Below are positions 3,063 through 26,085 of a stretch of DNA of 64,000 bases, piece after piece (positions within the stretch are counted from its first letter, which is position 1; the number at the start of each line of letters is the position of its first letter). The DNA comes from Naegleria gruberi. Its lineage: Eukaryota. The translations under genes were made by a program, and so were the position numbers. The notes under the pieces are model-generated. The model had not been told where the DNA came from. It searched no databases and saw only the letters and a list, made by a program, of their open reading frames with translations. The stretch lies in assembly GCA_000004985.1 (NCBI GenBank), contig GG738862.1; one strand, written 5' to 3'.

Positions 3063-3199
3063 ATATTTGTATGAAATTGATGAATAAATTGTAAAGTGCC
3101 TAGTTAACTTATTGATTGTACCCGCCGTGCTATGTTTGTGTTATTCTAAAGATAGATTTACTTCATATTGTTGAAGAGTGAAAGATTAAGGAAGTGAAT

Positions 3200-3318
3200 G
3201 GCTACGGCCATATCACGATGAATGCACCTCATCCCGTCCGATTTGAGAAGTTAAGCATCGTCGAGCCACATCAGTACTGAGGTTGGAGACAACTTGGGAA
3301 CCTGTGGTGCTGTAGTCT
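3200..3318 (+). rRNA. 5S ribosomal RNA gene
   Basis: GGCTACGGCCATATCACG...CATCCCGTCCGATTTGAGAAGTTAAGC...GGGAACCTGTGGTGCTGTAGTC, about 118 nt. The 5' end pairs with the 3' end as helix I. A Pol III T-run terminator (TTTTT) follows immediately. The same unit, including a ~35-bp upstream box, recurs at 20679 and 25039. Confidence 0.85.
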
Positions 3319-3946
3319 TTTTATCTTTTCTTTTACCACAGACTTGCTCCCAATCTTGAGCTTTTGGAATTTTGATGTAGCTTCAGGTTTGCCTTGTATT
3401 GGTTTCAGTTGGCATTGGATCTTCACCGCAGCAAAATTCCAACACACACAAAATTTCTATTATTTAACAGAGCGAGAAATCATACCAGATGATCCTCACA
3501 GGAAAAAATTGAGAAGGAGGGCAACAACCACTTTGATTATTGACCAAATTCTGGCTACTCATCCTCTGAGTGCAAGGAGGAGAGTTTCCAGATTCACAGT
3601 TCAGTCTGCATGATCACTGAAATGTCCTTCAAGGTAAGTATGAAGAAAGAAAAGAGTGTAAATTCGAACAAATCTTATAAGCCTTTCTAGATGTATGGTT
3701 TTTGAGAACTGAATTATGGTCGTTGTTTGTTATTTTATGATTTAACTTCTCTGAGATAGTTGAACATGAAGTAAACACAGAGTTGATAAATTACATTGAA
3801 ATTTAAGTAGGACGTGTATTGAACAAAAGTTCAACGTAGAAAATAAGGGGTCAAAAAAACTCAACTGTGTGCTTTATTGAATATTTACATTTTGATTTTA
3901 TTTACAATGAATGCCTAGGTTTACAAAATTTTGAGTTAAATGGAGA

Positions 3947-4156
3947 TTACCACATTTTGAATTGTTTGTTTCTCATTTCTAAAGTATTATGTGATTGAGA
4001 TTTAGAAGTTTTGCTTGTTTCAATAGAATTCAATGTTTTGTAATCAATTAAATTTCTTCTTCTTGTTCCACCAACAATATTATCCAGAGAAATTTCGGAA
4101 TTAAATTGTGAAGTATTATTGGAGGAATTATACATATTTCTTCTTGTTGAGACCAT
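3947..4156 (-). CDS. Small basic Ser/Asn-rich protein (69 aa); paralog of the 4355 ORF
   Basis: Shares the motif NI(V/I)(G/S)GTR(R/H)RN(L/N)IDY(K/H) and nucleotide-level similarity (ggaacaaga...attgatta) with the divergently oriented ORF at 4355. Confidence 0.3.
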   Translation of the reverse strand: MVSTRRNMYNSSNNTSQFNSEISLDNIVGGTRRRNLIDYKTLNSIETSKTSKSQSHNTLEMRNKQFKMW

Positions 4157-4354
4157 TTTCTTATTGTTATTTTCTTTTGTTGGTTTTCATTAAATTTCTT
4201 TCATCAAAATATTAAATTCTTGTGATGAATGGAAAATCCACTAAAAATCGGAATCACAAAATTAGTGGAAATCATCATGGAAATAAATAGATAATTGTTT
4301 TGGATGATGATATTTCCACAACAAAATAACTAAATAACAAAAACTAAGAGCAAA

Positions 4355-4651
4355 ATGCCAGCTAGAAATACTTCATCAAATTCTTCAAATTCTTCCGGAG
4401 ATAGAATTCCAACAAAAACAGAATGGACAAGATCAAAACCAATTGATTTATCTAAAAGATTACCATTATTTGATATTGATACATCTAATATTATAAGTGG
4501 AACAAGACATCGTAATAATATTGATTATCATCATGCAAATTTAAATGGTAAACAAATTTCAGTGAAAAGATCTTCGAAAAATTCAATTGAAAAGAGAGCT
4601 AAACAATCAAACACCACAAATAAGAAGATTACCAAATCGAAAAAGATGTAA
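4355..4651 (+). CDS. Small basic Ser/Asn-rich protein (98 aa); paralog of the 3947 ORF
   Basis: ATG start. Shares the GTRHRNNIDY motif with the 3947 ORF. Lys-rich tail. Confidence 0.35.
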   Translation: MPARNTSSNSSNSSGDRIPTKTEWTRSKPIDLSKRLPLFDIDTSNIISGTRHRNNIDYHHANLNGKQISVKRSSKNSIEKRAKQSNTTNKKITKSKKM

Positions 4652-5262
4652 ATTACAACTTGTAAATAATTCAGTAAATTGTAATTTGTAAATAAAATGT
4701 TTGAAATTTATGAAGTTTCAATTTCGAATTGATAAGAATAAGAGAAACCAAAATTTGCATCAAGCAATTCAACATGTGGAATGTTCAATAAATACGAAGG
4801 TGATCAACCCTACCAATTTCTTCAACAAACCTTACTGAACCAACAAGATTCGTCTAGTTGCCTTCACTGTTCATACAGTCAAAGACTGTAGCGGGATTGT
4901 CGCCATATTCCTGGCAGGCTTCCCGTCCAAAATTAATAATTGAAATTTCTCTATTAACACAGCTTCTAAGTAGCGATCTTTTATTTGGAGGCATGGTTGT
5001 TGTCTACAATCAACTTTGGGTGGTAATACCACATTGTCAGTTAGTGTTGGTGGTTCAGGAATTGTTAAAGTTATTGATAACTATAAGGATATTGTTCATC
5101 CAATATGATCAAACTCCATTGAAATAGTTAATAATTTAGTTGCAAATTAGATATTTGTTATAAACCTTTTATAATCTCAGGTTTCCAATAAAAAACAAAG
5201 TCCATATGTTGATTAATGATTTTTAATAGCATCTCAATAAAAATCAATAAAACATGCAATAA

Positions 5263-5377
5263 AAGACTACAGCACCACAGGTTCCCACTATCCCTTTTGT
5301 TCAGTTTATTAAGGTAATTGATGGCTATGGCCATATCACGATGAATGCACCTCATCCCGTCCGATTTGAGAAGTTAA
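5263..5377. pseudogene. Rearranged 5S rRNA-derived fragment. The 3'-terminal ~25 nt lie in minus orientation at 5263-5287 and the 5' ~55 nt in plus orientation at 5323-5377.
   Basis: aaaagactacagcaccacaggttccc is the reverse complement of the 5S 3' end. ggctatggccatatcacgatgaatgcacctcatcccgtccgatttgagaagttaa is the 5S 5' half, and homology stops abruptly after gaagttaa. Confidence 0.6.
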
Positions 5378-5539
5378 AAGGCAAACAATAATTTTTCAAT
5401 CTTTGGAAATTCAATTTAATAGTTCTACCACTGAATCGATTATTTGAAAAGTTACTTTGAGGTTTTCTGAATAGGTTTTTGATAATGATTCCTTTTTTTT
5501 CAAATCCAATAGCAACAAAGTATGAATGATTTTTGACTC

Positions 5540-6715
5540 TTATTTGGTTTCTGTTAAATTCCTGTAAGCCCATCTCACAATGGCATTTACAACATTACTA
5601 TCGATTCCTTGTATTTGTTTACATGCATGTTCAATTTTTTCTTCTTTTTCTCCTTTAAAGGATATTAAGGCATCCACAACATTTTCCAAATCATATCCAC
5701 AAACCATTTTTGACTGAAGGTCTTCCTCATTGATCCCAACTCCTACATCATAGTCTATCAAAACCATTCTCATTTGTTCCCTTCTCCACGATTTTGGTTT
5801 GCTTTTATCAAGTTTGAATTCAGAAATTTCTAAAAAACTTGTTGCCCTTTGCAAAGTCCCCTCAACTTTGGTTTGCTCTTCTAGTTGTAATTTCATTAAT
5901 TGTAATTTTGACTCAAGACTTGCAACCCTTATTGATGTGTTGTTTTGGGCACGCTCTTTTCGTTTTCGTTTCGTTTTTGTATATTTAAATTCTTTGCTTG
6001 ATTCAGAAAGACCCTCTGAAGAGGAGGTTAGTGGTTCTGAAAGATAGTCTAGGAGTGCTTCAACATTTGAAGTATATCTTTTAATGGCTTCCCAAGATGA
6101 ATGCCTTGAAATATTGCCCTTACCACCCCAAATTCTTTTATAAAACGAAAGAGGTTTATCATTACAGGAATGGATCTGTTCAATACTTGGTATAGTAATT
6201 ACATCTTCTGTTAATGTGACAGAATTATCCTGTCTGCTTTCTTTGACAATGTTAAATCTGTGATGACCAAAGGTTGCAGGTTCTTTGACACAGAATTCAA
6301 TGGGGTAATCAGCTATCCAGCTATTATACAACAACATTAAAAAGGTTTTAATCTTTCTCCTGCTCCTCGAAAAGCATAATACTTTGATAAACGAAGAGGC
6401 ATCTTGTATTTGAGTTGATGGTGGTGAACAATAAATTCTCGACACCTCACCATAAACATCCGCATGCACAGCTAGTGCTCTAATATATCTCTTAACCTGT
6501 GTTTCCCGAGGAATATGTATAAAAAACGACAAGTGGGTTGGCAATTTATCTATTGCTTCTGTCAATGAAACAAGCGCTTCATTTCCGTTCTCCTCTGTAA
6601 TGGTAACATATTGTTCACTCATTTTCTGTAGTTTTGGATTAATTAGATAAAATGGCGGTAAACTTGTTTGGCATTTTTTTACAAATGAAAGTTTGTTAAG
6701 CTTAAGGTTTTGCAA
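5540..6715 (-). CDS. Hypothetical protein (391 aa), possibly with a UBA/CUE-like C-terminal helix bundle
   Basis: Long intact ORF with an ATG start. Basic KRKRK stretch followed by coiled coil. C-terminal MVCGYDLENVVDALISFKG...VVNAIVRWA looks weakly UBA-like. Confidence 0.45.
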   Translation of the reverse strand: MQNLKLNKLSFVKKCQTSLPPFYLINPKLQKMSEQYVTITEENGNEALVSLTEAIDKLPTHLSFFIHIPRETQVKRYIRALAVHADVYGEVSRIYCSPPSTQIQDASSFIKVLCFSRSRRKIKTFLMLLYNSWIADYPIEFCVKEPATFGHHRFNIVKESRQDNSVTLTEDVITIPSIEQIHSCNDKPLSFYKRIWGGKGNISRHSSWEAIKRYTSNVEALLDYLSEPLTSSSEGLSESSKEFKYTKTKRKRKERAQNNTSIRVASLESKLQLMKLQLEEQTKVEGTLQRATSFLEISEFKLDKSKPKSWRREQMRMVLIDYDVGVGINEEDLQSKMVCGYDLENVVDALISFKGEKEEKIEHACKQIQGIDSNVVNAIVRWAYRNLTETK

Positions 6716-7244
6716 TTCGTAAAATAGAGTTTGGTTAAGGTCTGACTTTTGCTAAATTCACTGCATAATAGCCTATATTTTCAGTAAGGAAATTTACTTT
6801 ATTCTACTCTTCCAAATATTCTATCTTCCCAATCATTAAATAAATTCTCCTTCATCGTAATCACCTAGTCTAGGATGAACCACAAGTGAAAAATCACCAC
6901 AATGATTTCCGTCCACCTGAATTCTCTTTTGAAGTACTTTCCTCACATAAATTGGGGTGATAATTCAAATAATTGGAAACTTTTGATGATCCACCAATTA
7001 CGAAAACGAATGGTAGAGGAGCAATTAATATTTACAGATTGGAGCTCTTAATTCCCCCTTATCAAAAACATGGTGAATTATCCTTCTCTCTGAATGATAC
7101 CATTCAAGTTAATTCTTCATATAATTCAAATTGTTGCTATCATCATTATATTGGTCATAAGGTTCTGGTCTTTTTTTCATCAGCTGAGATTTTGATTAAG
7201 GGGAGATTCCTCAAATCAGCAAACAAATTAAACTCTCAAAAAAA

Positions 7245-10200
7245 ATGCGACCTCTCTTTTCCATTCGCTCTGACATTGTTCGGCACTTTTCTTCTGCTAT
7301 CCGACCTTTCTTTAATTCGGCAGAAAAACTGTTCAGAGAAATAATGAAACCACATTTAACCTTTGAAGAATGCGCAAGTCTGTATGCGAATACGAACACA
7401 AAATCAATGAGTCTTGCAACCCTTATGATTACTTTGTGCTCTAAGCATAAACGGTCCGAAGTGGAAAGAAGGAAATATATTGATGAATTGAAAAATATTA
7501 TTCATCATTTTGATGAAGGCTCTGCCACTATTAGAACCATTGATATTGCCATTTCTACATTAGTGCATGAAGAAGGCTATGATGAAGTTGTAACTCTTGT
7601 TAGAAAACTTGGAAATTCATCACTTGCTTCTCTGAAGAGTTTTAGATTGGATCAAATCTTAAAAGTTCTCTCAAGTTATCCGAATGATTTTGAATTGGAT
7701 ATTGCCAAACATATATTTTCTGTTTTACTTGAAAGAAAACAAGTCAGTTTATACGCCTACAATTACTATGCACAGTGTTTGTTTAAATATAATTTTGAAG
7801 AGGGGATGACATTATTACATGAAATGAATGCTCAAAAAATCAAAATTTTTGATAATCTGTTTATTTCCTCATTGACTTTCTCTTTAAAGAAAAACAAACA
7901 AAAAGAAAGTAGAATGATTTGCTCAATGATTGAACATTCCAAAACTACCAACAAAGTGCTATTAACCACAATGGTGAATTTTTATAACAAATGTGAAGAC
8001 TATGATAAGGCAATTGAAATTACTAGAAACGTTAGCAGTGATGGATTGGATACAACTTCATATAATTGTTTAATTCAATCCTATATTGGAAAAAGTGATT
8101 TAAATAGAGCAATAGAGATGCTTGCTGAAATGCAACAGCAAAATATTTCACCCGACTCGGCCACATTTACAATTATTTTAACTGCTTGTGCTGACAGTAA
8201 GAATTACGAACAAGGGTTGAAAGTACTTTAGTTAGAGAACAAAATCGAGCACATCATCTATGAGATTTGAATCAATGATTAATTTCTATAACAAATGTGA
8301 AAAATATGATAAGGCCATTGAATTATTTGATAGCGTTCCAAAAGATAGAGTAGATACGACATCATATAATTGTGTAATTCAATCCTATATTGGAAAAGGT
8401 GATTTAAATGGAGCAATAGAAATACTTGCTGAAATGCAACATCTAAATATTTTACCTAACTCTACAACATTGCTATTATTTTAACTGCTTGTGCTGACAG
8501 CAAGAATTATGAGCAAGGATTGAGGGTGTTGAATATAGTTGGAGAGAACAAACTTTCAAGTAATCATTAGATAACCTCAATGATTAATTTCTATAACAAA
8601 TGTGAAAAATATGATAAGGCCATTGAATTATTTGATAGCGTTCCAAAAGATAGAGTAGATACGACATTATCACAATTGTGTAATTCAATCCTATATTGGA
8701 AAAGGTGATTTAAATGGAGCAATAGAAATACTTGATGAAATGCAACATCTAAATATTTTACCTAACTCTACAACGATGGCTATTATTTTAACTGCTTGTG
8801 CTGACAGCAAGAATTATGAGCAAGGATTGAGGGCGTTGAATATAGTTGGAGAAAGCAAACTTTCTAGTACTCATTGATGACCTCAATGATTAATTTCTAT
8901 AACAAATGTGAAAAATTTGATAAGGCCATTGAATTATTTGATAGCGTTCCAAAAGATAGAGTAGATACGACATCATATAATTGTGTAATTCAATCCTATA
9001 TTGGAAAAGGTGATTTAAATAGAGCAATAGAAATACTTGATGAAATGCAACATCTAAATATTTTACCTAACTCTACAACGATGACCATTATTTTAACAGC
9101 TTGTGCTGACAGCAAGAATTATGAGCAAGGATTGAGGGTGTTGAATATAGTTGGAGAAAGCAAACTTTCTAGTACTCAGTTGATGACCTCAATGATTAAT
9201 TTCTATAACAAATGTGAAAAATTTGATAAGGCCATTGAATTATTTGATAGCGTTCCAAAAGATAGATTAGATACAAGTTTTCACAACTGTTTAATTCAAT
9301 CCTATATTGGAAAAGGTGATTTGGATAGAGCATTTAGTATTTTTAATCACATGAAGGAATACTGTTCTATTCAACCTATTATCCCTGATACAACTACGTA
9401 TTTGGTGTTATTGACAGGTTGTGCAGACAGAGAATCTCTGAGCAAGGATTGAGGGTGTTGAATATAGTTGGAGAAAGCAAACTTTCTAGTACTCAGTTGA
9501 TGACCTCAATGATTAATTTCTATAACAAATGTGAAAAATTTGATAAGGCCATTGAATTATTTGATAGCGTTCCAAAAGATAGATTAGATACAAGTTTTCA
9601 CAACTGTTTAATTCAATCCTATATTGGAAAAGGTGATTTGGATAGAGCATTTAGTATTTTTAATCACATGAAGGAATACTGTTCTATTCAACCTATTATC
9701 CCTGATACAACTACGTATTTGGTGTTATTGATAGGTTGTGCAGATTTAGTATCTCCAACCAAAGGAAAAACATTAATTAAAGAGATACAAGAAAAACAAC
9801 TAGATAGTTCTGAGATGATCAAATCTGCAATGTTGACATTCTATTCCAAAACTTGCAACCAGAAAAAGACAACCGAAATATTAACAGATATACTAAGCAG
9901 CAACCCCTCCATTATGTCATATAATTGTATTTTAGCAAGTTATGCTCGTCATGGACAGGGTAAAAAAGCTTTGAATTTATTCAAGTCTATGGTTAAAAAC
10001 AGTGTACAACCTAATGGAGATACTATCACAATTATTTTGAATGCCTTGTCACATAGTGGAATGGTTGAAGAGGCCATAAAGATTTACAGCACAATAGAGA
10101 CACTCAAAATAATCCCATCACCATCCCATAAAACAGTAATGGTTGATGTTTTTGCGAGGGCTGGATTATTTAATGAAGCTGAACAGCTCATTGGAGACAG

Positions 10201-10828
10201 TACTGAGGCAATACTATGGCGAACACTCATGGCAGGATGTAGAAAGCATAATAATATAGAGATAGCAGAAAAAATATTCGAAATTTTAACAAAAATAGAA
10301 CCAACCGATCCATCTCCTTACATACTGCTATCAAATATTTACATGTTTAAAGGAAATAATACTAAGGCAAGTGAAATAAGAGGTTTGATGGTACAACAAG
10401 GCATTAAAAAAATTCCTGGAATTGTTTATAGTGAAGATAAAGGTACAACCTATCAATTCATTTCTGGTTCCAGTAATTACCCATTGTTTACAGAAGTGGA
10501 GAATAAGCGAAAAGAGATTTATCAAAAAATTATTGGTGCTGGTTATGTATCAGATACTAGATGGGTTACAAACGCTCAACTAATATCTGAGGAGGAAAAG
10601 ATTGATTCTTTATGCAGACACGCAGAAAAAATAGCAATCTCCCATGCTTTTGTTTTGCAACCAAATAGAAAAAAGATACTTTTAACAAGTAATTTGAGAG
10701 TTTGTAATGACTGTCACAATGCCATAGCTTACATTTCAAAAGAAATGAATGTGGAAATAGTTGTAAGAGATGCAAACAGATATCATCACTTCAAAAATGG
10801 TAAATGTAGCTGCAATGATTATTGGTAA
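7245..10828 (+). CDS. PPR (pentatricopeptide repeat) protein with C-terminal E/DYW deaminase domain. The tandem array is interrupted by stops or frameshifts at three unit junctions; the terminal ORF 9419-10828 is intact.
   Basis: Repeated ~35-aa PPR helices (SYNCVIQSYIGKGDLNRAIEILDEMQ...). C-terminus HAEKIAISHAFVLQPNRKKILLTSNLRVCNDCHNAIAYISKEMNVEIVVRDANRYHHFKNGKCSCNDYW matches the plant DYW consensus HSEKLA...RVCxDCH...RFHHFxxGxCSCxDYW. Confidence 0.85.
7950..9520 (+). repeat. Tandem array of about five near-identical ~300-bp units, each encoding ~3 PPR motifs, inside the PPR-DYW locus
   Basis: Units begin near 7950, 8260, 8570, 8874, 9180 and 9470 (MTSMINFYNKCEKFDKAIELFDSVPKDR...EQGLRVLNIVGESKLSSTQL). 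Lesions sit at the same junction position: TAG at 8230, TAG at ~8565, and a 1-nt deletion at ~8868. Confidence 0.8.
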
Positions 10829-12370: not shown

Positions 12371-12487
12371 GTTTCTTCTTTTTCAATGATTTTTAATTTG
12401 GTTGAAATAGTATGTAAATTAAGGACCCTCGGAAATAACAGTATTCATCATGAATTTATTTATTTCATTATCTTATCTCAATTTAGA

Positions 12488-14688: not shown

Positions 14689-15357
14689 GTGCAACAATTA
14701 AACAACAAAACAAATATGACCAGGAACAACAACAATAATAAGAGGAAGAGTAGTGATAGTAGTGGAAAACAGAAGAAGAGGAAGATACAAACTGGGGAAT
14801 TACCATCATCAATACCTTTGGATTCAAGAGATGGAGAAGGAGAAGTGGATTTCATTTTGGAATCAGGAGATTTTGAATATAAACCGGAATATGAGGAGTG
14901 GAATCAAGTACCATCGGAAAAGCAATTAGTTTTTAGTGTTATTTGGGGAGTTTTTGCTAAATGTGCAAGATGTAAAATCAATCAACATTTGGATATGAAT
15001 GCTAGTTGTACAATTAATCATGAAACTCTTGGATCATGTGCACATCAAGTATTTTATTTGATGATGAAGGACTCAAAGGGAGAATTTCGTAGATGGTATC
15101 AGGATGTTTGGTGGAATGGTATTAGAAAAAGAAGCAAATGTATTCAATTTATATTCCGAAATTGTTTACCGAATTTTGATAAATATGATGATTGGGGAAT
15201 GGTATTAATATTGCACACCAACAACACATCTCAATTTGGAACACTCAAATGTAGACAACAAATGAATATTACTAGAATGTCAATAACTTGTAATATTGAA
15301 ACAGGAGAGGTTTGGAGTTCTTTTAGATTCAAGAAGTCAATTGAGAAAGTACGATAA
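14689..15357 (+). CDS. Hypothetical nuclear-type protein with KRK-rich N-terminus (NLS-like) and Cys/His-rich core
   Basis: 222-aa ORF with an ATG start. KRKSSDSSGKQKKRK looks like a bipartite NLS. Confidence 0.4.
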   Translation: MQQLNNKTNMTRNNNNNKRKSSDSSGKQKKRKIQTGELPSSIPLDSRDGEGEVDFILESGDFEYKPEYEEWNQVPSEKQLVFSVIWGVFAKCARCKINQHLDMNASCTINHETLGSCAHQVFYLMMKDSKGEFRRWYQDVWWNGIRKRSKCIQFIFRNCLPNFDKYDDWGMVLILHTNNTSQFGTLKCRQQMNITRMSITCNIETGEVWSSFRFKKSIEKVR

Positions 15358-15389
15358 CAACTTGTCAACCAACAATCAACAAATAAAAT

Positions 15390-17123
15390 ATGTCAGCATC
15401 CTTTAAATCTGACGTTCGTAAAATTGCTTTAACAATACCTCCCGAGTTGAACAATGATTCATTTCCTTCCATCCTACTTTTTTGTGTGTGTCAGCTCATG
15501 CTGAAATGTATTACAATAGAAGTACTCGAAAATATTTTGCTAAGTGCTTTTATTAATATTTATTTACCAATGATGACAAACAATAATGAACGCAACAAAC
15601 CTCTTGGCTGGGAAATTATTGATGATGATGATGTTACATCTCAACATAATTCGGAAGCAAGTATTGACATTGTTTCATTGTTAAGACAAGCAAGTGATGA
15701 AGTACAAAATATTGAACAAAGTGAGGATGTAGAGCATTCCCAACAAACAAGAAAACAATCAACAAGCAAGAAACCAAAAGCACCAAAACAGGTGCCAATT
15801 TTATACACTGATATTTTGGATAATTATACTGATTTTTCGTTTTTAAAATATAAATTAACTGGAGATGCAATTATTGAGGATGGAAGAGTTAATAGAACTA
15901 AGAGCAAATCTAAGCCAGTAGCAATTTGTAATATGGATCATTTCGGATTTTCAAAAAAAGATTTGTTTAGAAAATCTTGTAAACATTTCGTTGAATCTAA
16001 GCCCCATCTAAATTTAATATCAGCTAACAATAATTCTATTAAAAGCATCAAACTATTTAATATTAATGAAATGAAACAGAGTAAGGATATAAAATTTAAA
16101 GATAAAGAAGTTCTAGGAAGATTCTTATTTGGAATTGAATTGGCTGGATTAAATCATGGAATTAATGGATTTGAACATTTTATTCATTTGATTGCATATT
16201 TATTTAAGGATGAATTTATTCATGCCATTGGAACATATGATTACAAGGATAAAATTTTAAAAAAAGTAAAAGAATTACCAATTCAGGAACATTTAGAAAG
16301 TCTTAATGAATATATTGAGATGTATGAAAAAAAAACATTTCCAATAATATCTCCACTGAAATATATTGAAGAAGAGCAACATCAGGATTTGGATAGTGAA
16401 GAAGATCAAAATGAAGAACATGAACATTTTAATGAATTTAATACTGGAGTGGTTTCAACAACAAAGAAACATTCAAAGGAAAAACAACAACCACAAAAAG
16501 AAACAAATATTGAAAATGATGATAATGAATGGCATGATATAGATAGCTCAATGGATGACGATGTTGAAGAGGTAGTTAATATTGTTGAACAATCACGTGT
16601 AGATGTAGTCAATAATGAATCAAGTAAATTTACATTTACTAAAAAAATGGTTAGAGATATTTATGGAAAACAAGAATCCAGAATGTCATGTTTGAATTAT
16701 TCTAAATTTTCCAAAATAACTGAATCAGACAACACCAAAGACTCAGTTTTAAGAAAAGCAACAGCTATTTTGAATATACAAACTCTTTTAAAATTTGGAG
16801 TTCAGGTTGATGAAGAAAATTCAATAGTTGTCGCGAGCATGCTCAAGGTGTTGGAAGAATCAATAAGGTACCACATTAATTGGATTAAGGAAGCCGAAAA
16901 AGATGAAACTTTGAGCAAAAAATTGAAAAAAGAGGATTTGGAAATAGATTTAAAAGTATTTTATTTCAAATTAAATCTAGATGAAGCCTCAGGTACTGTT
17001 ACATTCGCTATTCAATTATTGAATGGAAAATCTCATGGAAATCCCGAATCGAGATTAAATGTGACAACACTAGCTGCCTGGCGTGGAGGCGAAGAGAAAA
17101 TGAGATCGAAAGTAGTAATGTAA
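15390..17123 (+). CDS. Hypothetical acidic protein (577 aa)
   Basis: Long intact ORF with an ATG start. Asp/Glu-rich internal segment. No recognisable domain. Confidence 0.5.
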   Translation: MSASFKSDVRKIALTIPPELNNDSFPSILLFCVCQLMLKCITIEVLENILLSAFINIYLPMMTNNNERNKPLGWEIIDDDDVTSQHNSEASIDIVSLLRQASDEVQNIEQSEDVEHSQQTRKQSTSKKPKAPKQVPILYTDILDNYTDFSFLKYKLTGDAIIEDGRVNRTKSKSKPVAICNMDHFGFSKKDLFRKSCKHFVESKPHLNLISANNNSIKSIKLFNINEMKQSKDIKFKDKEVLGRFLFGIELAGLNHGINGFEHFIHLIAYLFKDEFIHAIGTYDYKDKILKKVKELPIQEHLESLNEYIEMYEKKTFPIISPLKYIEEEQHQDLDSEEDQNEEHEHFNEFNTGVVSTTKKHSKEKQQPQKETNIENDDNEWHDIDSSMDDDVEEVVNIVEQSRVDVVNNESSKFTFTKKMVRDIYGKQESRMSCLNYSKFSKITESDNTKDSVLRKATAILNIQTLLKFGVQVDEENSIVVASMLKVLEESIRYHINWIKEAEKDETLSKKLKKEDLEIDLKVFYFKLNLDEASGTVTFAIQLLNGKSHGNPESRLNVTTLAAWRGGEEKMRSKVVM

Positions 17124-17135
17124 TATTTTAAATTT

Positions 17136-18526
17136 ATGATTGAGGCTACTAGAGCTAACGGAGTAATTGTTGATGGGAAAACATACAAAGTTGACTATTT
17201 AATGACAACTGATTTATTATCCTTGAAAAATATTAGTAGATTAATGTTTAAAAGAATGTGCCCATATTGTTTGAGTCTTTCAACATTATGTGATAGAAGA
17301 CATGTATTGAGAGCAAAAGAAGAACTTTCATGTATTTTATCTATTCCTCCCTCAAAGATAGTAATTTGTTTCCTCCATTTAAGGGAACGAATCATGGAAA
17401 GACTGTTAATAGATTCAATATTGACAATGAGTAGTACGAGAAAATTTTTGAAGACGTTGAAATCAATTAAGAATTTTCAGAACTTTTCATTGCGTCAACT
17501 TAACACCAAAAAAGGAATATTATATAGATGTTACTTGATAGGAAATATGGTTAAATCATTGTTAAAAAGTCTTATTGTTATCAAGAAATTTATCAATCCA
17601 ATGCAATATGAATTGATGACCAAATTTAAACGAGTAGTGGATTTGTTGAACGTAAAGGAACGAATGGATGATGAACAGTATGAAACTTTTATGAAAGCTC
17701 TCAAAGATATGCAACAATCATATTGCAGATTATATGTTAATGGTCCTAAAAGTTGGTACATGCACATATTGTTTCATCATGTTCCAAGTTTATTGAAAAT
17801 GTACGGCTCCTTAAAGCCATTTGAAACTCAGGGTTTTGAAGGTAAGTAATCATTAACTTTAATATTAATTGTAAACAGGAGCTCACATTGACGATAAAGA
17901 TCTATTGGAAAAAACCTCTCATAATGGAGGAAGAAAATCATATTTGCACTTTATGTTTCCAAACTTTAAAGATATAATGTTAATCCAATTTATTTTACCT
18001 AGATTAAGGAAATTGTTAATTTGTAACGAGTATGGTTTTAAATTTGACTGTAGTAAAAGAGATTCTAAATTGGTAAGGCAATTTCTTGATGAGCCCTATC
18101 CTGATATACTTTGTGAATATTCTCATTTATTGGAAAGAAATGATGATCAAATGTGTGATGACGAATGTTGTCAAAATAATTGATTCACATAGAATTATTA
18201 AAGCTCATAGGGATAATCTTGATGTAGGAGTTAGTATATTGTTTTATTTCGGATCGTATCTTGAAAATGAAGGTTATTTGGAGTTAACTGATAAAAATTG
18301 CAAAATATATTGCAGACCTGGAGATGTAGTGATATTTAAAGGAAATATTTATAAACACAAAGTTAATAATATTTCAACAGGATTTAGGATAGGAATTGTT
18401 TATTTCACACATAAGGGAAACAAGTCAAAACCATACTATGAAACAACGCAACGAGCCTCTTTGAAGCAACACAGAGAGTTGTTTCCTAACGAGAAGCCAA
18501 AGAAAAAGAAGAAGACAAATAAATAA
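17136..18526 (+). CDS. TET/JBP-family 2OG-Fe(II) dioxygenase (Naegleria Tet-like 5-methylcytosine oxygenase). Exon 1 is 17136-17841, a 37-nt intron follows at 17842-17878, exon 2 runs to ~18160, then an apparent frameshift leads into the catalytic frame, which ends at 18526.
   Basis: Catalytic-frame sequence IDSHRIIKAHRDNLDVGVSILFYFGSYLENEGYLELTDKNCKIYCRPGDVVIFKGNIYKHKVNNISTGFRIGIVYFTHKGNKSKPYYETT contains the HxD motif (HRD), a distal His (YKH) and an Arg (GFRIG) of the double-stranded beta-helix fold. It strongly resembles the published Naegleria gruberi Tet1 core as I remember it. The intron is GTAAGT...ACAG and splicing keeps the frame. Confidence 0.7.
17842..17878 (+). other. Spliceosomal intron (37 nt) in the Tet-like gene
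   Basis: gtaagtaatcattaactttaatattaattgtaaacag. Splicing joins ...ETQGFEG to AHIDDKDLLEKTSHNGG in frame. Confidence 0.7.
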
Positions 18527-18683
18527 ACGAACTTCATTCCTATCAATGTCAAAAATTTATTTGTTGTTTACATTCTAAAGAGAACATCCCTTCCAAAAAA
18601 AATTTACCTTCTACTTGTATTCTAATGTACAGCTCGACGACCGCTTGGCTCGTAGTGTTGTGTTTTGAAAACTTGATCACAAT

Positions 18684-20606
18684 TTGGATAAAAAAATGTC
18701 ATTAGAGGATGATGGAGAGAAGCAGATTTATTCTGTGTTTAATTTACCGGAAGTGGTTTCTAATGTTTTATTAAATTTATCTGCAAGGGAAAGAGCAAAG
18801 TTTCGTCTCATCAATTCGAATTGTGATCAAGTATACAAAATTGAAGAGGAATTATTATTTATTAAATTATGGACAAGATATAGAGATGGACATTCGTTCG
18901 GATATCAAGAAGAAACACTTTCTAATGAAGAATTGGAGCATTATCAAGAAATTTATGGAAATTTACAATTTCATTTGCGTGTTTGGTTGACTAAATGTTC
19001 AAATGGAAGATATGAGAGGGAAAATTCATTGTTATTGAGTATTTGCAATATTGGCGATTGGAGATTTATTCAAGATTGTCCATTTGTGAATGAAGATTTT
19101 CTTGAAGAATATTTAGATTCGAATTTGGTAAAGAGTTTAGTTTGTGTTCACATGGCGAAAGAAGTTTCGTATTTTATGGACATGAGAAGTGGAATATTCT
19201 ACCAAAATGTTAATATTAAATCTACTTTGAATTGGAAAAGACTTGGAACTATTCAAGAATGGTTAGAAAATATGCCCTTCGATATATTAGGAAAATTATC
19301 AATGACTAATAAGGGAAGAAAAGTTAATTATCTTGCAAAACTTATGAAAGCAATGGAAGGAAATAATATTGAGGCGATTATTTCTTTATTGAAACAGAAT
19401 TTATGTTTATTTCCCTATTTAAAGGATCAATTTAAAAGAAGGGAAGAAATTTTACAATTTTTATTGGAAAATAACGTTTATGGAACATCAATTATTGGTA
19501 TACACAGTTATTTACCTGCATTTATACCGTATGATTTGAGATGTGATCCAGATTTTGTATTGAAATATTGTAAAATTATTGATTTTTATTATTATTTACC
19601 AACTAAATTAAGAAATGATACTGAATTGATCATTAAAATATTGGAAATTCACAAAGATGTCACTATTCATCTCAGTTCAGTACCAAAAGAATTATTTTCT
19701 GATATTAGGGTTTTGAAAATATTAAGAAAACCAATTATGGAAGAATTACAATACAAAGATTTCCCACATTTGGAAATTGACACTATTGAAAAATTAATGA
19801 TATTTGGAGATTGTAATATTCTATATCCATACATATCTGACAAGTTACTCAATGATCAAGATTTTATCAGGAAATTTTTAATTGCTCAATATGGAGAGGA
19901 GTATAATGTAAATCCTACAAATTTGGAATCTGTTAAACATCCATTACAAATGGTGTTTATTGACCAATCATTGAGAAGTAACAAATCAATCATGGAAAAC
20001 CTCTCACAATACCATCTTTTATATTTATGTGGCGACTTGAAAAGAGATTTTGACATTTTATCAAAAATTGAAAAAACAAGTATTCTAAAGAAGGTCAATC
20101 CACTTTTAACATTGGAAGATTATCTTGAAATATTTAGAAAATTCATACAAAGATCTCCAACGAAAACTTTTACATTTTACTATTATATTTCAAATTTACC
20201 AACAAAATTATTCAATTGTAAAGAGGTTGTTCTGACAACAGCAAAATTATACAAAAAGTATCTTGTGGTTTTAAGTAAGATTGGAAGTGAATTATGTAAG
20301 GATGTGCAGTTTTGGAGGGAATTGTTAGAGGAAACTTCGTATGTTGATATTGGAAGTTTCGTCCCACATGAAATTCGAAACGATCCAAAAGTTTTCCTCA
20401 AACAATTGAAATATCCTGAATTGCAAATGTGTTCAAAAGAGTTGTTGGAAAATGTTGAATTTGTGGAGGAGTTTTTGGTTGCCAATAATCATTTCGAATA
20501 CATTTACCTTTCACCTAAAATGAGATCAAATAAGGAATTATTCATGACATTAAGTGAGAAAGATATGGAACTATTTCAATTTGCATCCCCTGATTTATTT
20601 GCCTAA
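18684..20606 (+). CDS. F-box-like / DUF4116-repeat protein (640 aa)
   Basis: N-terminal IYSVFNLPEVVSNVLLNLSARERAKFRLINSNC looks F-box-like. C-terminal repeats LRCDPDFVLKY, LRNDTELIIKIL and IRNDPKVFLKQL resemble DUF4116 units, as in the ORF at 1379. Confidence 0.5.
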   Translation: MDKKMSLEDDGEKQIYSVFNLPEVVSNVLLNLSARERAKFRLINSNCDQVYKIEEELLFIKLWTRYRDGHSFGYQEETLSNEELEHYQEIYGNLQFHLRVWLTKCSNGRYERENSLLLSICNIGDWRFIQDCPFVNEDFLEEYLDSNLVKSLVCVHMAKEVSYFMDMRSGIFYQNVNIKSTLNWKRLGTIQEWLENMPFDILGKLSMTNKGRKVNYLAKLMKAMEGNNIEAIISLLKQNLCLFPYLKDQFKRREEILQFLLENNVYGTSIIGIHSYLPAFIPYDLRCDPDFVLKYCKIIDFYYYLPTKLRNDTELIIKILEIHKDVTIHLSSVPKELFSDIRVLKILRKPIMEELQYKDFPHLEIDTIEKLMIFGDCNILYPYISDKLLNDQDFIRKFLIAQYGEEYNVNPTNLESVKHPLQMVFIDQSLRSNKSIMENLSQYHLLYLCGDLKRDFDILSKIEKTSILKKVNPLLTLEDYLEIFRKFIQRSPTKTFTFYYYISNLPTKLFNCKEVVLTTAKLYKKYLVVLSKIGSELCKDVQFWRELLEETSYVDIGSFVPHEIRNDPKVFLKQLKYPELQMCSKELLENVEFVEEFLVANNHFEYIYLSPKMRSNKELFMTLSEKDMELFQFASPDLFA

Positions 20607-20678
20607 ATTTATTGTTGAAAAGTGAATCTGGTGTCATTCAAATTATTAATTGAAGAGTGAAAGATTAAGGAATTGAAT

Positions 20679-20797
20679 GGCTACGGCCATATCACGATGA
20701 ATGCACCTCATCCCGTCCGATTTGAGAAGTTAAGCATCGTCGAGCCACATCAGTACTGAGGTTGGAGACAACTTGGGAACCTGTGGTGCTGTAGTCT
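20679..20797 (+). rRNA. 5S ribosomal RNA gene (copy 2)
   Basis: Identical to copy 1 across ~118 nt. The upstream box ttgaagagtgaaagattaaggaattgaa and a downstream T6 run are conserved. Confidence 0.85.
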
Positions 20798-22175: not shown

Positions 22176-24035
22176 ATGTATCAAAGGAAAGCATTGATAA
22201 CTAACCAATCAATCCTTAGTGTCAGTTTGCTGCTAGTTTGTTTACTGGCATTAAGTATTTTGCATGTTCCATCATCTGTTTTGTGTGCTTCCTCAAGTAG
22301 CTCATCAAGTAATGGAACTGTGAGAGAATGGCTCAATGACTTGAATGATCAAGCTGCTAATCTACAATCCTCTGCTTCAAGATTGCAAAAAGCTATTGCA
22401 ATTTTGAGTATGGCCAACAATACAGCATCCATCATCAGCATGAGAAATGCCCAGCTAAAGAAGATTAATTCTGCACTTGACATGATTAATCAAGAAATTT
22501 CAATCTTTAAAATCACCTGCAGTAATAATGATGGTCCTGATTGTAGCATTCCAGTATGTGTATCAAAGTGTTTGAACTGCTCTGGACCTGGAAAGTGTGG
22601 TGTTTGTTCTGGTAATTTTGATGGAAGTGATTGCTCTGCATGTAAATCTGGATGGAGTAATTACAATAGCAATTGTACTGTTCCAATTTGTGATTCTAAA
22701 TGTATTATTTGTCAATCACCTGGAAACTGTACCAATTGCTCTGGTAATTATGATGGTTCTGTATGTTCATCATGCAAATCAGGATGGAATGGTTCTAATT
22801 GTTCAACACCTATTTGTGATTCTAAATGTGTAACTTGTCTCTCACCAGGAAACTGTACTAATTGCTCTGGTAATTGGACTGGATCTGCCTGTTCTATTCC
22901 TGTATGTGATTCCAAATGTTTGAATTGTTCAGCACCTAGTGTTTGTTCTCAATGTTCTGGTAATTGGGTTGGTTTAACTTGTTCAGTATGTCAGACAGGA
23001 TGGACAGGAGCAACTTGTTCAACACCAGTATGTGATTCCAAATGTACAACCTGTGCATCTCCTGGTGTTTGCTCAGTTTGTTCTGGTAATTGGCAAGGAT
23101 CTACATGTTCCACATGTAAGACAGGATGGACAGGAGCAACTTGTTCAACACCAATTTGTGATTCCAAATGTACAACCTGTGCATCTCCTGGTCAGTGTTC
23201 TGTGTGTTCTGCTGGTTGGACAGGAGCAACTTGTTCAACACCAGTTTGTGATTCTAAATGTACAACATGTGCATCTCCTGGTCAGTGTTCTGTGTGTTCT
23301 TCTGGTTGGACAGGAGCAACTTGTTCAACACCAGTTTGTGATTCCAAATGTACAACATGTACATCTCCTGGTGTTTGCTCAGTTTGTTCTGGTAACTGGG
23401 ATGGTCCTTCATGTTCTGTGTGTAAAACTAGTTGGACAGGTTCATCTTGCAATCTCGCTCTTGGTGATTTTGCAAACTCACCATTATTCTCCGCTAGTTA
23501 TGGAGCTAGGTTGATCACATCTATTTTGAGTGGCGTTATGAAGAAAACACCAACCAGACTCTATAGAGCCATGGCAACTTATGGTATGGGAATTGGTTAT
23601 GGCTATCATCCTTACGCTTTCCATAATGCCTGCAATGGTTATTCTTCAACAGTTACAATTGTGAAAACATCAGCAGGGGCTGTATTTGGTGCCTATCTAA
23701 GCATTCCATGGGAAGATTATAATGCTGGGGATACAACAACTCGTAAGACATTTTCAGATCCTAATGCATTTCTATTTAGTATGGTAACATCGAGCGGTGT
23801 GGAGAGATTTGTGAAATTGGGTTATTCTGGAGCTGTTGGACAAACTGTTACATACAATTTTATAACACATCCATTGTTTGGAGCGTCGGATATTTATTTG
23901 GGACAAGGGATGAGCTATCAGCCAGCACCTGATGCTTATTCGAAACCAGCAACTTTTCAACCTTTGGAACCTAACTGGAGTTATGGAACTACATATTCAT
24001 TCACTGTTTCTGATTATGAAGTGTATAGTATTTAA
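22176..24035 (+). CDS. Secreted Cys-rich (EGF/laminin-EGF-like repeat) protein with C-terminal TLDc domain
   Basis: Signal peptide (LLLVCLLALSILHV). At least 10 repeats of CxSKCxxCxSPGxCxxCSGNWxGxxCSxCKxGWxGxxCSTPxCD. The C-terminal region LYRAMATYG...AFHNACNG...VTIVKTSAGAVFGAYLSIPW...AFLFSM...SFTVSDYEVYSI fits the TLDc pattern. Confidence 0.75.
   Translation: MYQRKALITNQSILSVSLLLVCLLALSILHVPSSVLCASSSSSSSNGTVREWLNDLNDQAANLQSSASRLQKAIAILSMANNTASIISMRNAQLKKINSALDMINQEISIFKITCSNNDGPDCSIPVCVSKCLNCSGPGKCGVCSGNFDGSDCSACKSGWSNYNSNCTVPICDSKCIICQSPGNCTNCSGNYDGSVCSSCKSGWNGSNCSTPICDSKCVTCLSPGNCTNCSGNWTGSACSIPVCDSKCLNCSAPSVCSQCSGNWVGLTCSVCQTGWTGATCSTPVCDSKCTTCASPGVCSVCSGNWQGSTCSTCKTGWTGATCSTPICDSKCTTCASPGQCSVCSAGWTGATCSTPVCDSKCTTCASPGQCSVCSSGWTGATCSTPVCDSKCTTCTSPGVCSVCSGNWDGPSCSVCKTSWTGSSCNLALGDFANSPLFSASYGARLITSILSGVMKKTPTRLYRAMATYGMGIGYGYHPYAFHNACNGYSSTVTIVKTSAGAVFGAYLSIPWEDYNAGDTTTRKTFSDPNAFLFSMVTSSGVERFVKLGYSGAVGQTVTYNFITHPLFGASDIYLGQGMSYQPAPDAYSKPATFQPLEPNWSYGTTYSFTVSDYEVYSI
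23030..23400 (+). repeat. Near-identical in-frame 87-nt tandem repeats inside the Cys-rich gene
   Basis: gcaacttgttcaacaccagtttgtgattc(c/t)aaatgtacaac(a/c)tgtgcatctcctggtcagtgttctgtgtgttct repeats about four times, encoding ATCSTPVCDSKCTTCASPGQCSVCS(A/S)GWTG. Confidence 0.8.
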
Positions 24036-24214
24036 ATTCAAACAATAAAAGATTCTTCATGAGCCATTAAAATAATGTGATGAAATTCCAACTTGGAAAT
24101 CTTGCTGATTTTCAACTGCATTTATTTATTTTTGATGTGTTTCAAACGAAACGACATCACTTCTACCAAGTTTATTATTTATAAAACAATAATGATGTAA
24201 ACTAACAAATCAAT

Positions 24215-24946
24215 TTATTGAGACAAACATTGATTAATGGATGGACATTGAGATGGAAGAATAAAATTAGCATTATCCACCTTTTCAATCATGTCATAAA
24301 AAACTTGTTCTTGAGAAGCATTCGAAACTACAACATACGAGCTCAATAACCAACACTTATTGGAGGTCATTTGTGGTTCTCTGAATGTCCACATGGTTCC
24401 AGTGGATCCGTTTTGAGAAGAAACAACTTTCAATGCATCATAATTACCAATCTTTCCTTTTGTAATCTTTCCATTGGATGCTGGAATGCAAATTGAATTC
24501 CATTGATTGAAATCTGAAACCTTTCTACAAACACATTGACCATCTCTTAAACCATACAAAACAGTTACTGTAGAACTAATCTTGATATCCCAATTGGTGT
24601 AATTGAAAACAACTCCATCAACTGTATAACTGATATCTTGTCTCATCTTTCCAGTATTGTAATCTGCTGAAACTTTAAAGTTTCCATCGTAATGTTGTAA
24701 AGTGTTATTGGACAAGACAGCAATTTGATTGAAACTTCCTTTCAAAGAAAAGACATTTGGCAAACAACAAATATTTGAATCAGATGGAGCTCTCTTATTG
24801 AAAGCAGAACTTTCGAATAATTGATTGAAAACAAACATTGGAGAAGCAGCGTGGCACATTGAAGCCATGGTTGCAACAACAAGTAAGAATGAAAGAATTG
24901 TTAGTTTCAACATTTTTTTTGGTATGAGAAATTGTAAGATATTCAA
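24215..24946 (-). CDS. Secreted hypothetical protein (243 aa)
   Basis: N-terminal signal peptide (LTILSFLLVVATMASMCHA), several Cys and N-glycosylation sequons. No recognisable domain. Confidence 0.5.
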   Translation of the reverse strand: MNILQFLIPKKMLKLTILSFLLVVATMASMCHAASPMFVFNQLFESSAFNKRAPSDSNICCLPNVFSLKGSFNQIAVLSNNTLQHYDGNFKVSADYNTGKMRQDISYTVDGVVFNYTNWDIKISSTVTVLYGLRDGQCVCRKVSDFNQWNSICIPASNGKITKGKIGNYDALKVVSSQNGSTGTMWTFREPQMTSNKCWLLSSYVVVSNASQEQVFYDMIEKVDNANFILPSQCPSINQCLSQ

Positions 24947-25038
24947 ATTATTTTACTAATTTATACATTTTCAAATTGGAAACTCAATCGAAACAATTTA
25001 ATTGATCAATCTTGAAACTTTAGTTGAAAGAATAAAAA

Positions 25039-25156
25039 GACTACAGCACCACAGGTTCCCAAGTTGTCTCCAACCTCAGTACTGATGTGGCTCGACGATG
25101 CTTAACTTCTCAAATCGGACGGGATGAGGTGCATTCATCGTGATATGGCCGTAGCC
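25039..25156 (-). rRNA. 5S ribosomal RNA gene (copy 3, minus strand)
   Basis: Exact reverse complement of the 5S sequence. The upstream box is present but carries a ~20-nt insertion (tgatgaaagattattataaa) between box and gene. A T-run terminator follows on the minus strand. Confidence 0.85.
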
Positions 25157-26085
25157 ATTCTTTATAATAATCTTTCATCATTCAATTCCTTAATCTTTTA
25201 CTCTTCAATTAATAATTTTACTAAAATTGCAAAAGGAAAAAGAGTACGTGACAAATTGTTGCCAAAAGGTTTGTTGTTCTTTCTGGATAGGATTTGAAAT
25301 TGAAAGAACAAGAAGAACATCACTGCTAGATAACATCACGGAGATGTATTTATTGGTGTCTTGATGAAGATTGATGAAGTAGATGATGAATAATTATTGT
25401 TGGGAAGACATGTGAAAATTCAACTTTCCAATCTTTGGAAAATTGCTGAAAAACATTGCAAATCTACCTTTCCTGTTGTGATTTAATAACAAATCTTGTT
25501 CGTCCTGTTGAAATTGAACAAGTTTTCCAGTGCTGTTTTTGGCTGTGAAAATTAACGGTCAAACTTTCATCTTCTCCAACTCTACATCTGCTTGAAGGAA
25601 AATTTTGAAACTTTCTGGTATGATGCTAATTAACATTTAGAACAAGCCTAGGATGTTCTTGTTGCTTTTGATGATGTTCTTCATGATGAAAATATTAAAA
25701 TTATTAATTTGATGAAAATATTCTTAAAGTAATACAATCGCACCCATTTGATTGTTATATCATTGCTGTATACTAATGGATGATGTGGGTTTTACTTCTC
25801 CAACTCGACAAAATGTTCCATCAATTTAATCGGTGCCTTTTAAAATTTGTAATTCATGTTGAAATACAACAAAATTAATTCCCACATGTTCCATATTATC
25901 CTATCCTCTTGTTCTGAAAATATTTTCCGCAGTGTCGAAGAATTGCCTTTGAAAATCAGCAATGATGAAAACTGTAGCAGAGTGATGAAATTTTTTCCTC
26001 TTTTTTTTTGCTTGCACTTTCTTTCATCAAACTTCATTTAATGCAAAAACTCGGCAAAGATTTTCATTTACATATGTAACGGTTT

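Follow-up and report, generated by a model that had tools for sequence, protein, structure and literature searches.

A 64 kb window of nuclear DNA from scaffold_18 of Naegleria gruberi NEG-M, which is the stretch analysed here, contains exactly three full-length 5S rRNA genes. Each of them matches the Rfam model RF00001 over model positions 1-120 without truncation, with a score of 105.4 bits (the gathering score is 38), and the 119-nt 5S sequences of the three copies are identical. The genes are solitary and intergenic; each has unique coding flanks, and protein genes separate the copies, with spacings of 17.5 kb between copies 1 and 2 and of about 4.2-4.3 kb between copies 2 and 3, which are inverted relative to each other. 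A run of at least four T (4-5 nt) directly follows the 3' end in all three cases. The first-pass annotation, which had described three full 5S copies lying singly between protein-coding genes and followed by T-runs, is borne out on both points. These three genes are already known, as they are listed in Table S1 of PMC3369914. Exact matches of proteins encoded in the window establish which organism and scaffold it comes from. No match to rRNA genes other than 5S was found in the 64 kb window, and there are no tRNA or U6 genes in it, hence no other Pol III upstream regions for comparison. The features of the three units, and of a broken 5S relic, are as follows.

3171-3199, plus strand: upstream box of copy 1, TTGAAGAGTGAAAGATTAAGGAAGTGAAT, at -29 to -1 (pattern search, in-register identity)
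3200-3318, plus strand: 5S rRNA gene, copy 1, 119 nt (Rfam RF00001; scaffold_18:419203-419319 in Table S1 of PMC3369914)
3319-3322, plus strand: T-run terminator of copy 1, TTTT, then ATC (read from sequence)
5261-5287, minus strand: relic piece 1, 5S nt 96-119 with TTTT, inverted (27/27 identity)
5288-5307, no strand assigned: 20-nt filler between the relic pieces, with no similarity to the 5S unit
5308-5377, plus strand: relic piece 2, box remnant (-15 to -1, ATTAAGGTAATTGAT) and 5S nt 1-55 with C6T (93% repeat match)
20640-20678, plus strand: upstream block of copy 2, made of the core box at 20650-20678 and the extension AAATTATTAA common with copy 3
20679-20797, plus strand: 5S rRNA gene, copy 2 (Rfam RF00001; scaffold_18:436682-436798 in Table S1 of PMC3369914)
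20798-20802, plus strand: T-run terminator of copy 2, TTTTT (read from sequence)
25034-25037, minus strand: T-run terminator of copy 3 (read from sequence)
25038-25156, minus strand: 5S rRNA gene, copy 3 (Rfam RF00001; scaffold_18:441037-441153 in Table S1 of PMC3369914)
25157-25185, minus strand: proximal degenerate box of copy 3, TTGAATGATGAAAGATTATTATAAAGAAT, a 20/29 match in the normal -29 to -1 register
25180-25218, minus strand: distal box of copy 3 with the AAATTATTAA extension; the box part, 25180-25208, is a 27/29 match displaced 23 nt upstream

The three units have a common anatomy, with a conserved block of ~29-39 bp directly upstream, the gene, and the oligo-T run. A 23-nt string from the box has three matches in 64 kb, all of them preceding 5S genes, with 0 expected by chance (pattern search). 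Copies 1 and 2 have the 29-nt box in a fixed register, -29 to -1, where copy 3 has a degenerate form of it. When the three intact copies, all located within 22 kb, are compared with one another in register, 28-35 of the 36 positions from -36 to -1 are identical (28-29/36 for copy 1 against the others), and the flanking 36-nt windows (-72 to -37, -108 to -73, and downstream) agree at ~10/36 positions, which is the background level. Similarity ends beyond about -40 and +7, and the remaining flanking sequence is unrelated. Copies 2 and 3 have 39-40 nt of upstream sequence in common, a 40-nt arm being 98% complementary to 25179-25218. The chance expectation and the in-register identity uphold the earlier claim that a conserved box precedes each copy at the same distance; the variable position of the box was, however, wrongly given as a/g, and is in fact G/T at -6, with T in copies 2 and 3. 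On the downstream side only the T-run and ~3 nt more (~7 nt in total) are conserved, as compared with ~30-40 nt upstream, and this asymmetry matches where Pol III factors sit.

The proximal and distal boxes of copy 3 have TTGAAT as their overlap, a sign of duplication by slippage over 23 nt; the slippage would have occurred between the TTGAA motifs at the start and near the end of the box. An insertion had been noticed at this place before and was taken to be 20 nt long. The insertion is real, and it is a partial tandem duplication of the box with a length of 23 nt. The presence of a perfect 5S gene next to a 20/29 proximal box means either that the box tolerates change, or that this copy is kept uniform though unused.

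The relic had been described as an inverted 3'-end fragment of 5S lying ~35 bp from a 5' half, at 5263-5377; it is real, and its bounds are 5261-5377, with 35 nt between the inverted piece and 5S nt 1. The 40 nt from 56 to 95 are missing, and only 15 nt of the box remain, with two indels and with the same T at -6 as in copies 2 and 3. Scored as a whole 5S, the relic falls short of the Rfam gathering score of 38 with 25.9 bits, and it is not a full-length foldable 5S. Two pieces in opposite orientation with nt 56-95 missing fit the earlier notion of a rearrangement scar. The sequence points to an unspecified break-and-repair event, and the region may be seen as a dead copy that lost sequence by deletion, was partly inverted and took up filler DNA, that is, a relic of a birth-and-death process and not an active element. 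A simple in-place inversion was considered as the origin of the relic and rejected; the sequence after nt 55 has no clear match to the reverse complement of the distal half-box. The part of the window at 2.6-8.2 kb, in which copy 1 and the relic lie, has a duplicate on a 59,947-bp scaffold, where paralogues are encoded.

Related units were sought outside N. gruberi. A scan of metagenomes with a 24-nt 5S pattern returned 21 loci, of which only one, L008, is Naegleria-like, the others being from other eukaryotes. The 5S of this environmental copy differs by 1 nt, and its upstream region has, in register, TTGTTGAA at -32 to -25 and AAGT..AT at -8 to -1; the in-register upstream identity is 18/36, and the fraction of off-register comparisons with as high a value is 0.005-0.016. 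Beyond the three local copies, L008 is the only related one with such partial conservation in register. A peptide search with translations of the 5S antisense strand led to two ENA contigs. In L022, the 5S is at the contig edge, without upstream sequence. L023 represents a more distant relative with 12 substitutions in 5S, some of which are apparently compensatory, as they fall on mutually pairing positions of a hand-drawn helix I; the order of motifs TTGTT, GAGTGAA and AGATTAA is kept there, with different spacing, and the in-register identity is not significant. A peptide query spanning the box gave no match, nor did scans of genome contigs and viral contigs. When homologues of the gene that immediately precedes copy 2 were sought, only its own protein was found. 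The conservation of the box across species is weak.

Several explanations of these observations have to be weighed. Dispersed copies could be an assembly artefact produced from a collapsed tandem 5S array, and Table 1 of PMC3369914 does mark N. gruberi 5S as 'tandem: Y' (the entry for 'located with rDNA units' is N). We re-analysed Table S1 of the same study, so that genome-wide dispersal was assessed on published coordinates and not on sequence. The table holds 279 5S hits on 117 scaffolds (~264 near-full-length and 15 shorter). Neighbouring hits on the same scaffold are a median of 34 kb apart, just two gaps being below 1 kb, and these solitary hits speak against an array, as do the unique coding flanks of each copy in the window. 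Moreover, the junction of gene 2601-3062, spacer, box and 5S recurs in ENA contig L024, which was assembled independently from a metagenome and represents a strain with 99% identity; misassembly is thereby excluded. There is virtually no chance that a collapsed array lies behind the pattern; the N. gruberi 5S family consists of dispersed solitary units, not of tandem arrays, and the dispersed reading of the first-pass annotation survives the objection of a tandem array or misassembly.

Many dispersed genomic copies might also be expected if the 5S unit were a mobile or retroposed SINE-like element, with 5261-5377 as a 5S-derived SINE insertion, as had been suggested for both, and 5S-derived mobile elements do exist elsewhere, for example the Cassandra TRIMs of plants (PMC10853983). 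The window offers no support for this. Target-site duplications were not found around the units; the best direct repeats on either side measure 0, 6 and 7 nt, which is no more than chance, since shuffled sequences reach these lengths in 43-83% of trials. There is no A-rich, poly(A) or LINE-like tail in the 3' flanks of the three copies, where the T-run gives way to unrelated sequence, and no unrelated SINE body follows the 5S head. A Cassandra-type layout (LTR, PBS, PPT) is likewise absent, and no repeats other than the solitary units contain 5S. Each of the three copies is a complete and canonical 5S RNA, identical to the other two, and what they share begins ~30-40 nt before the mature 5' end, with sequence that would be missing from a retrocopy of a Pol III 5S transcript. 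As to the relic, two opposite-orientation pieces of one unit with 40 nt lost speak for breakage and repair and not for a SINE-like insertion. The mobile or retroposed reading is therefore largely refuted, and we regard it as very improbable.

The most likely meaning of the conserved block, judging by its conservation, is that of an upstream Pol III element; this had been proposed before, and the proposal stands as the favoured one, with the promoter role inferred from sequence. A competing explanation is that the block has no function, and that what is duplicated or converted is merely a unit of ~170 bp (-40 to +130), the three copies being recent local duplicates. Copies 2 and 3, separated by 4.3 kb, share the longer block (40 nt, 98%) together with T at -6, which means that a part of the similarity comes from local duplication or gene conversion and not from selection; the relic has the same T variant, conservation outside N. 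gruberi is weak, and copy 3 tolerates a disrupted proximal box. Against these points stands the shape of the conserved tract. Unselected conversion tracts should stop at variable points on both sides, whereas this one is asymmetric, as it spans ~30-40 nt on the upstream side and ~7 nt on the downstream side, including the 4-5 nt of the functional T-run, and it coincides with the zone of TFIIIB/Pol III assembly. Copy 1, located 17 kb away between unrelated flanks, nevertheless matches the box at 28-29 of 29 positions, and L008, from another organism, retains TTGTTGAA at exactly -32 to -25. On balance, a functionless block seems unlikely, even if it deserves more weight than either of the two preceding alternatives.

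We thus think it probable that the 5S genes are self-contained Pol III units, in which the upstream block is a promoter-proximal element, and which were multiplied by duplication at the DNA level, with selection or gene conversion preserving their uniformity. Each unit would work autonomously as a gene of RNA polymerase III. Its upstream block would span the region of TFIIIB and Pol III assembly, roughly -40 to -5, and act as a gene-external, promoter-proximal element beside the internal control region, while the T-run would end transcription. New copies would be produced by small DNA-level duplications, and only those duplicates that include the upstream block would be functional and kept. 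Purifying selection, probably together with gene conversion, would maintain full identity in the RNA-coding part and near-identity in the box, and copies 2 and 3, 4.3 kb apart, would belong to a shared sub-type.

The box A consensus, in the form of the pattern given in PMC3369914, is found at +50 to +64 (AGTTAAGCATCGTCG), and the strict box C consensus NNG(G/A)TGGGNG(T/A)CCN(C/T)NNG of the same study is unmatched near +80 to +97, where the sequence is GAGGTTGGAGACAACTTG. This region still resembles other 5S RNAs, and the mismatch to box C is compatible with an internal control region (ICR). A 'TATA box' and an ICR are reported for N. gruberi 5S in PMC3369914, where no TFIIIA was found in N. 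gruberi by BLAST or PSI-BLAST; in Trypanosoma brucei, the TFIIIC subunit Tau95 was not detected on the 5S gene (PMC10781861). It is conceivable, though rather doubtful, that the block of ~30-40 bp is the main 5S-specific promoter of Naegleria and recruits TFIIIB and Pol III without TFIIIA, an arrangement that could extend to other Discoba. Such a role would be compatible with the deviant box C and with the report that N. gruberi lacks TFIIIA (PMC3369914). The sequence upstream of the U1 gene nearby was compared with the 5S box, and no shared element was found.

Solitary 5S genes are known from several other lineages. Neurospora crassa and Schizosaccharomyces pombe have dispersed families of such genes. 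In Yarrowia lipolytica, there are 108 dispersed 5S genes and 8 relics (PMC2566860), and Acanthamoeba castellanii has ~100 dispersed copies on most of its chromosomes (PMC9528979). As in these four organisms, the 5S genes of N. gruberi are scattered singly among protein genes in tens to hundreds of copies, and have identical or nearly identical coding sequences, unrelated flanks, T-run terminators, and relics. Fungi with dispersed 5S have short TATA-type motifs, which the N. gruberi block exceeds in length (29-39 nt) and in uniformity (at least 93% identity among the three copies). The tRNA-5S fusion of Yarrowia has no counterpart in the window, which is without tRNA genes. The large rRNA genes of Naegleria reside on an extrachromosomal plasmid, leaving 5S as the sole chromosomal rRNA gene.

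In S. pombe and plants, 5S and other Pol III genes of types 1 and 2 have a TATA-like box at about -30 to -24, and the TATA of Neurospora 5S is at -29. Upstream elements within ~40 nt of the start, in the TFIIIB footprint, exist besides the internal boxes (PMC7279448). The N. gruberi block resembles these elements in being a short conserved sequence within ~40 nt of the start, but TTGAAGAGTGAAAGATTAAGGAAGTGAAT has no canonical TATA at the usual -30 to -24, and its most AT-rich part, GATTAAGG, is at -15 to -8. SINE3 of zebrafish is a mobile element derived from 5S, and 5S pseudogenes that retain the 5' half are found in Aspergillus nidulans. Cassandra TRIMs of plants contain a 5S-related sequence (PMC10853983). 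The N. gruberi units share with Cassandra and SINE3 a dispersed 5S sequence with an internal promoter, and differ from them in having no LTRs, internal region, tail or target-site duplications, as well as in combining a full canonical 5S with conserved non-transcribed upstream sequence. The N. gruberi relic is similar to those of Yarrowia and Aspergillus in that a 5' half (nt 1-55), preceded by some of its upstream sequence, differs little from functional copies and lies near them. It is a more complex case than a simple truncation, however: nt 96-119 and the terminator survive too, but in reverse orientation and on the 5' side of the 5' half, with 20 nt of filler between the two pieces.

It is well known that 5S genes may be dispersed, with short promoter motifs upstream of them and a relic here and there. 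What is added here is that the 5S genes of N. gruberi are dispersed solitary units, contrary to the tandem entry in the summary table of PMC3369914, and that the unusually long and uniform block upstream of them is a concrete candidate for a promoter. This candidate bears on how Pol III may recognize 5S genes in Discoba, where TFIIIA has not been identified, and of which Naegleria is a tractable free-living representative.

In Rfam searches of the whole window, three 5S rRNA genes and no more exceed the threshold, with the same sequence and no differences between them.

5S rRNA genes in the window
3200-3318, plus strand: copy 1, full-model Rfam match, 105.4 bits
20679-20797, plus strand: copy 2, full-model Rfam match, 105.4 bits
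25038-25156, minus strand: copy 3, full-model Rfam match, 105.4 bits

Copies 1 and 2 lie 17,479 bp apart, copies 2 and 3 about 4,355 bp, in an AT-rich (G+C ~33%), gene-dense region of long ORFs with few introns. Four complete ORFs match N. gruberi NEG-M proteins of one 502,116-bp contig exactly (EFC45729, EFC45731, EFC45627, EFC45630). The coding flanks are unique to each copy, and the only common 3' flank is TTTT(T)AT(T/C), in agreement with the first-pass annotation of three full copies, each followed by a T-run.

Upstream, the copies remain alike. In register, 28-35 of the 36 nt preceding the RNA are identical in pairwise comparisons, and 39-40 nt are common to copies 2 and 3; identity is at background (~10/36) in the next two upstream 36-nt windows and in the window past the T-run. 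The upstream box, at -29 to -1 relative to 5S nt 1, is confirmed for all three genes: the string TTGAAGAGTGAAAGATTAAGGAA has three matches in 64 kb, each directly upstream of a 5S gene, against a chance expectation of zero. A mismatch-tolerant scan adds one box-like site, a degenerate copy at -29 to -1 of copy 3. Position -6 varies between G and T, not A and G, and copy 3 has an insertion of 23 nt, not 20, that duplicates part of the box in tandem. The distance from box to RNA is equal in copies 1 and 2; in copy 3 the in-register box is the degenerate one, and the better match is displaced upstream.

Boxes upstream of copy 3
25180-25208, minus strand: distal box, 27/29 identical
25157-25185, minus strand: proximal box, 20/29 identical

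The two boxes overlap in TTGAAT, and the duplication is of the kind expected from slippage between TTGAA at the box start and (G/T)TGAA close to its end. The block is strongly uniform within N. gruberi, as seen in three local copies; we found no literature description of it beyond 'TATA box'.

A 2012 BLAST survey listed 279 putative 5S genes in the N. gruberi genome (PLoS One; PMC3369914). We parsed the published coordinates (Table S1 of that paper) anew for all genome-wide counts, and found 279 matches on 117 scaffolds, of which 264 reach 110 nt or more and 15 are shorter, with a median same-scaffold neighbour spacing of 33.8 kb and only two gaps below 1 kb. Of the eight copies on scaffold_18, three lie within the window: rows 419203, 436682 and 441037 fit the observed spacing, so the window corresponds approximately to scaffold_18 416,004-480,003. 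From this scatter and spacing, the family consists of dispersed solitary genes, loosely clustered; the entry 'tandem: Y' for N. gruberi in Table 1 of PMC3369914 is not borne out by the coordinates in its Table S1.

An independently assembled metagenome contig, L024 (positions 1-685, ENA ERZ929261), is 99% identical to window 2546-3230, and in it the gene (2601-3062), a 138-nt spacer, the box and the 5S follow one another as in the window, with indels in the spacer and none in the box. The contig is orthologous and comes from a Naegleria strain of 99% identity. In this strain's contig, copy 1 lacks nt 6-14 (CGGCCATAT) close to the contig end, either a real 9-nt deletion or an assembly-end artefact. 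The L024 junction and the unique coding flanks rule out misassembly of the 5S copies and, with the Table S1 coordinates, the alternative that all copies lie in a tandem array.

A broken copy lies at 5261-5377.

Parts of the 5S relic
5261-5287, minus strand: 5S nt 96-119 and TTTT, reverse-complemented without a mismatch
between the pieces: 20 nt of unrelated filler
5308-5377, plus strand: last 15 nt of the box, then 5S nt 1-55

The box remnant has one base inserted and one deleted, nt 1-55 carry one substitution, nt 56-95 are missing, and the whole scores 25.9 bits, under the Rfam 5S threshold. A single unit is present as two oppositely oriented pieces, with a deletion and filler DNA; we could not derive the arrangement from the sequence by a single clean inversion. 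Of the two origins suggested initially for the inverted 3' fragment and 5' half, scar-like breakage fits and a SINE-like insertion is not supported. Birth-and-death evolution is expected to leave such relics (PMC3123226).

The suggestion that the unit spreads like a mobile or retroposed element is likewise unsupported. The RNAs are canonical and full-length, and the common sequence starts upstream of the RNA. No target-site duplications beyond chance flank the copies, and around them we found no A-tail, LINE-like tail, SINE body or LTR-type architecture. Cassandra, a 5S-derived mobile element (PMC10853983), looks different. The observation of dispersed 5S units is correct but ordinary, and the N. 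gruberi genes and their dispersal are already published.

Dispersed 5S genes of matching arrangement occur in Neurospora and S. pombe, with short conserved upstream TATA-type elements. The arrangement also matches Yarrowia (108 genes, 8 relics; PMC2566860) and Acanthamoeba (~100 copies on most chromosomes; PMC9528979). The N. gruberi upstream block differs from these known families in being longer, more uniform and of non-TATA sequence. Solitary 5S genes of another eukaryote (GGGTACGGTCATCTTG...) in VFQM/VFQO metagenome contigs (L004-L007, L009, L011-L018), with unrelated flanks, provide a useful contrast to the long box: upstream they have in common only a short CTTTC/TTATC pyrimidine motif (-5 to -1) and, around -30 to -22, a patch rich in AT.

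Three environmental Naegleria-type copies allow comparison between relatives. L008 (JGI metagenome) has a 5S with a 1-nt difference and unrelated distal flanks; in register with copy 1 it shares TTGTTGAA (-32 to -25) and AAGT..AT (-8 to -1), and also has GAATTAA near -17. Its upstream identity is 18/36; only a 0.005-0.016 fraction of off-register comparisons score as high. L023 (ENA) has 12 substitutions in the 5S, some apparently compensatory, as they pair with each other in a hand-drawn helix I model; its upstream motifs (TTGTT, GAGTGAA, AGATTAA) follow the N. gruberi order with different spacing, and the match in ungapped register is not significant. L022 has an identical 5S at the contig edge, then TTTTT and a fourth, unrelated downstream flank. 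The partial matches of L008 and L023 indicate that the block, uniform within N. gruberi, is only partly conserved between relatives, at the motif level.

Several neighbouring loci deserve mention. A probable U1 snRNA gene (3473-3641, minus strand) is convergent with copy 1, 154 bp from its 3' end; it matches the full Rfam model at 47.9 bits (E 2e-10; gathering score 69.5), with 5' AUACUUACCU, loop sequences GAUCAUGCAG and UUGCACUC and Sm-like AAUUUUUU, and its upstream region has nothing in common with the 5S box. SNORD111 gives a weak C/D snoRNA-like match at 49895-49974 (35 bits, below threshold), and ARAGORN finds no tRNA genes in window 1-64000, despite the three 5S genes. Genes 2601-3062, 5540-6622 and 7245-8231 have twins on a 59,947-bp N. 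gruberi scaffold (EFC36156, 100% aa; EFC36147, 94% aa; EFC36155, same 90%-identity cluster), reflecting either a duplicated segment or a haplotype left unmerged. ORFs 7245-8231, 8874-9452 and 9419-10828 are crossed by some five ~305-bp tandem repeats (7965-9738; 60-100% identity), probably a repeat-domain protein gene. Secreted paralogues with a C-terminal TLDc domain are encoded at 22176-24035, 50316-51536 and 46161-47306, one of them between copies 2 and 3; two have cysteine-rich EGF-like repeats and near-identical N-terminal ~130 residues. DUF4116-repeat proteins (1379-2398, minus; 18684-20606, plus) adjoin or lie close to copies 1 and 2, probably by coincidence; the family is abundant in the genome. 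ORFs 14689-15357, 15390-17123, 17136-17849 and 18086-18526, just upstream of the gene adjoining copy 2, have no Pfam matches; 14689-18526 has lower GC and strong positive GC and AT skew, and its genes may form a cluster that is lineage-specific or mobile.

What does the block do? The conserved tract is strongly asymmetric, ~30-40 nt upstream against a terminator only downstream. On type 1 and type 2 genes TFIIIB and Pol III assemble in a zone in which Pol III genes of S. pombe and plants have TATA-like elements (PMC7279448), and we infer that the tract covers this zone and that every unit works as an autonomous Pol III gene. Positions +50 to +64 of the N. gruberi 5S carry a box A pattern, and a strict box C pattern has no match; an ICR and a 'TATA box' are given in PMC3369914. 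Asymmetry and position over the assembly zone lead us to read the block as a likely promoter-proximal element, which favors the upstream Pol III element offered in the first-pass annotation. Neutral hitch-hiking of the block with the RNA is an unlikely explanation, to which the sampling of only three local copies lends some weight. A still less probable reading makes the block the main, TFIIIA-independent 5S promoter. It would be compatible with the failure to find TFIIIA in N. gruberi (PMC3369914); trypanosomatids, also Discoba, are likewise without an identified TFIIIA, and on the 5S gene of T. brucei the TFIIIC subunit Tau95 went undetected (PMC10781861).

The relic and the neighbouring copies 2 and 3 have one sub-type in common, which suggests that local exchange or duplication took place. 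With the block as a candidate promoter-proximal element, a duplicate would have to carry it for the new copy to work, and its uniformity would be kept by selection and probably also by gene conversion.
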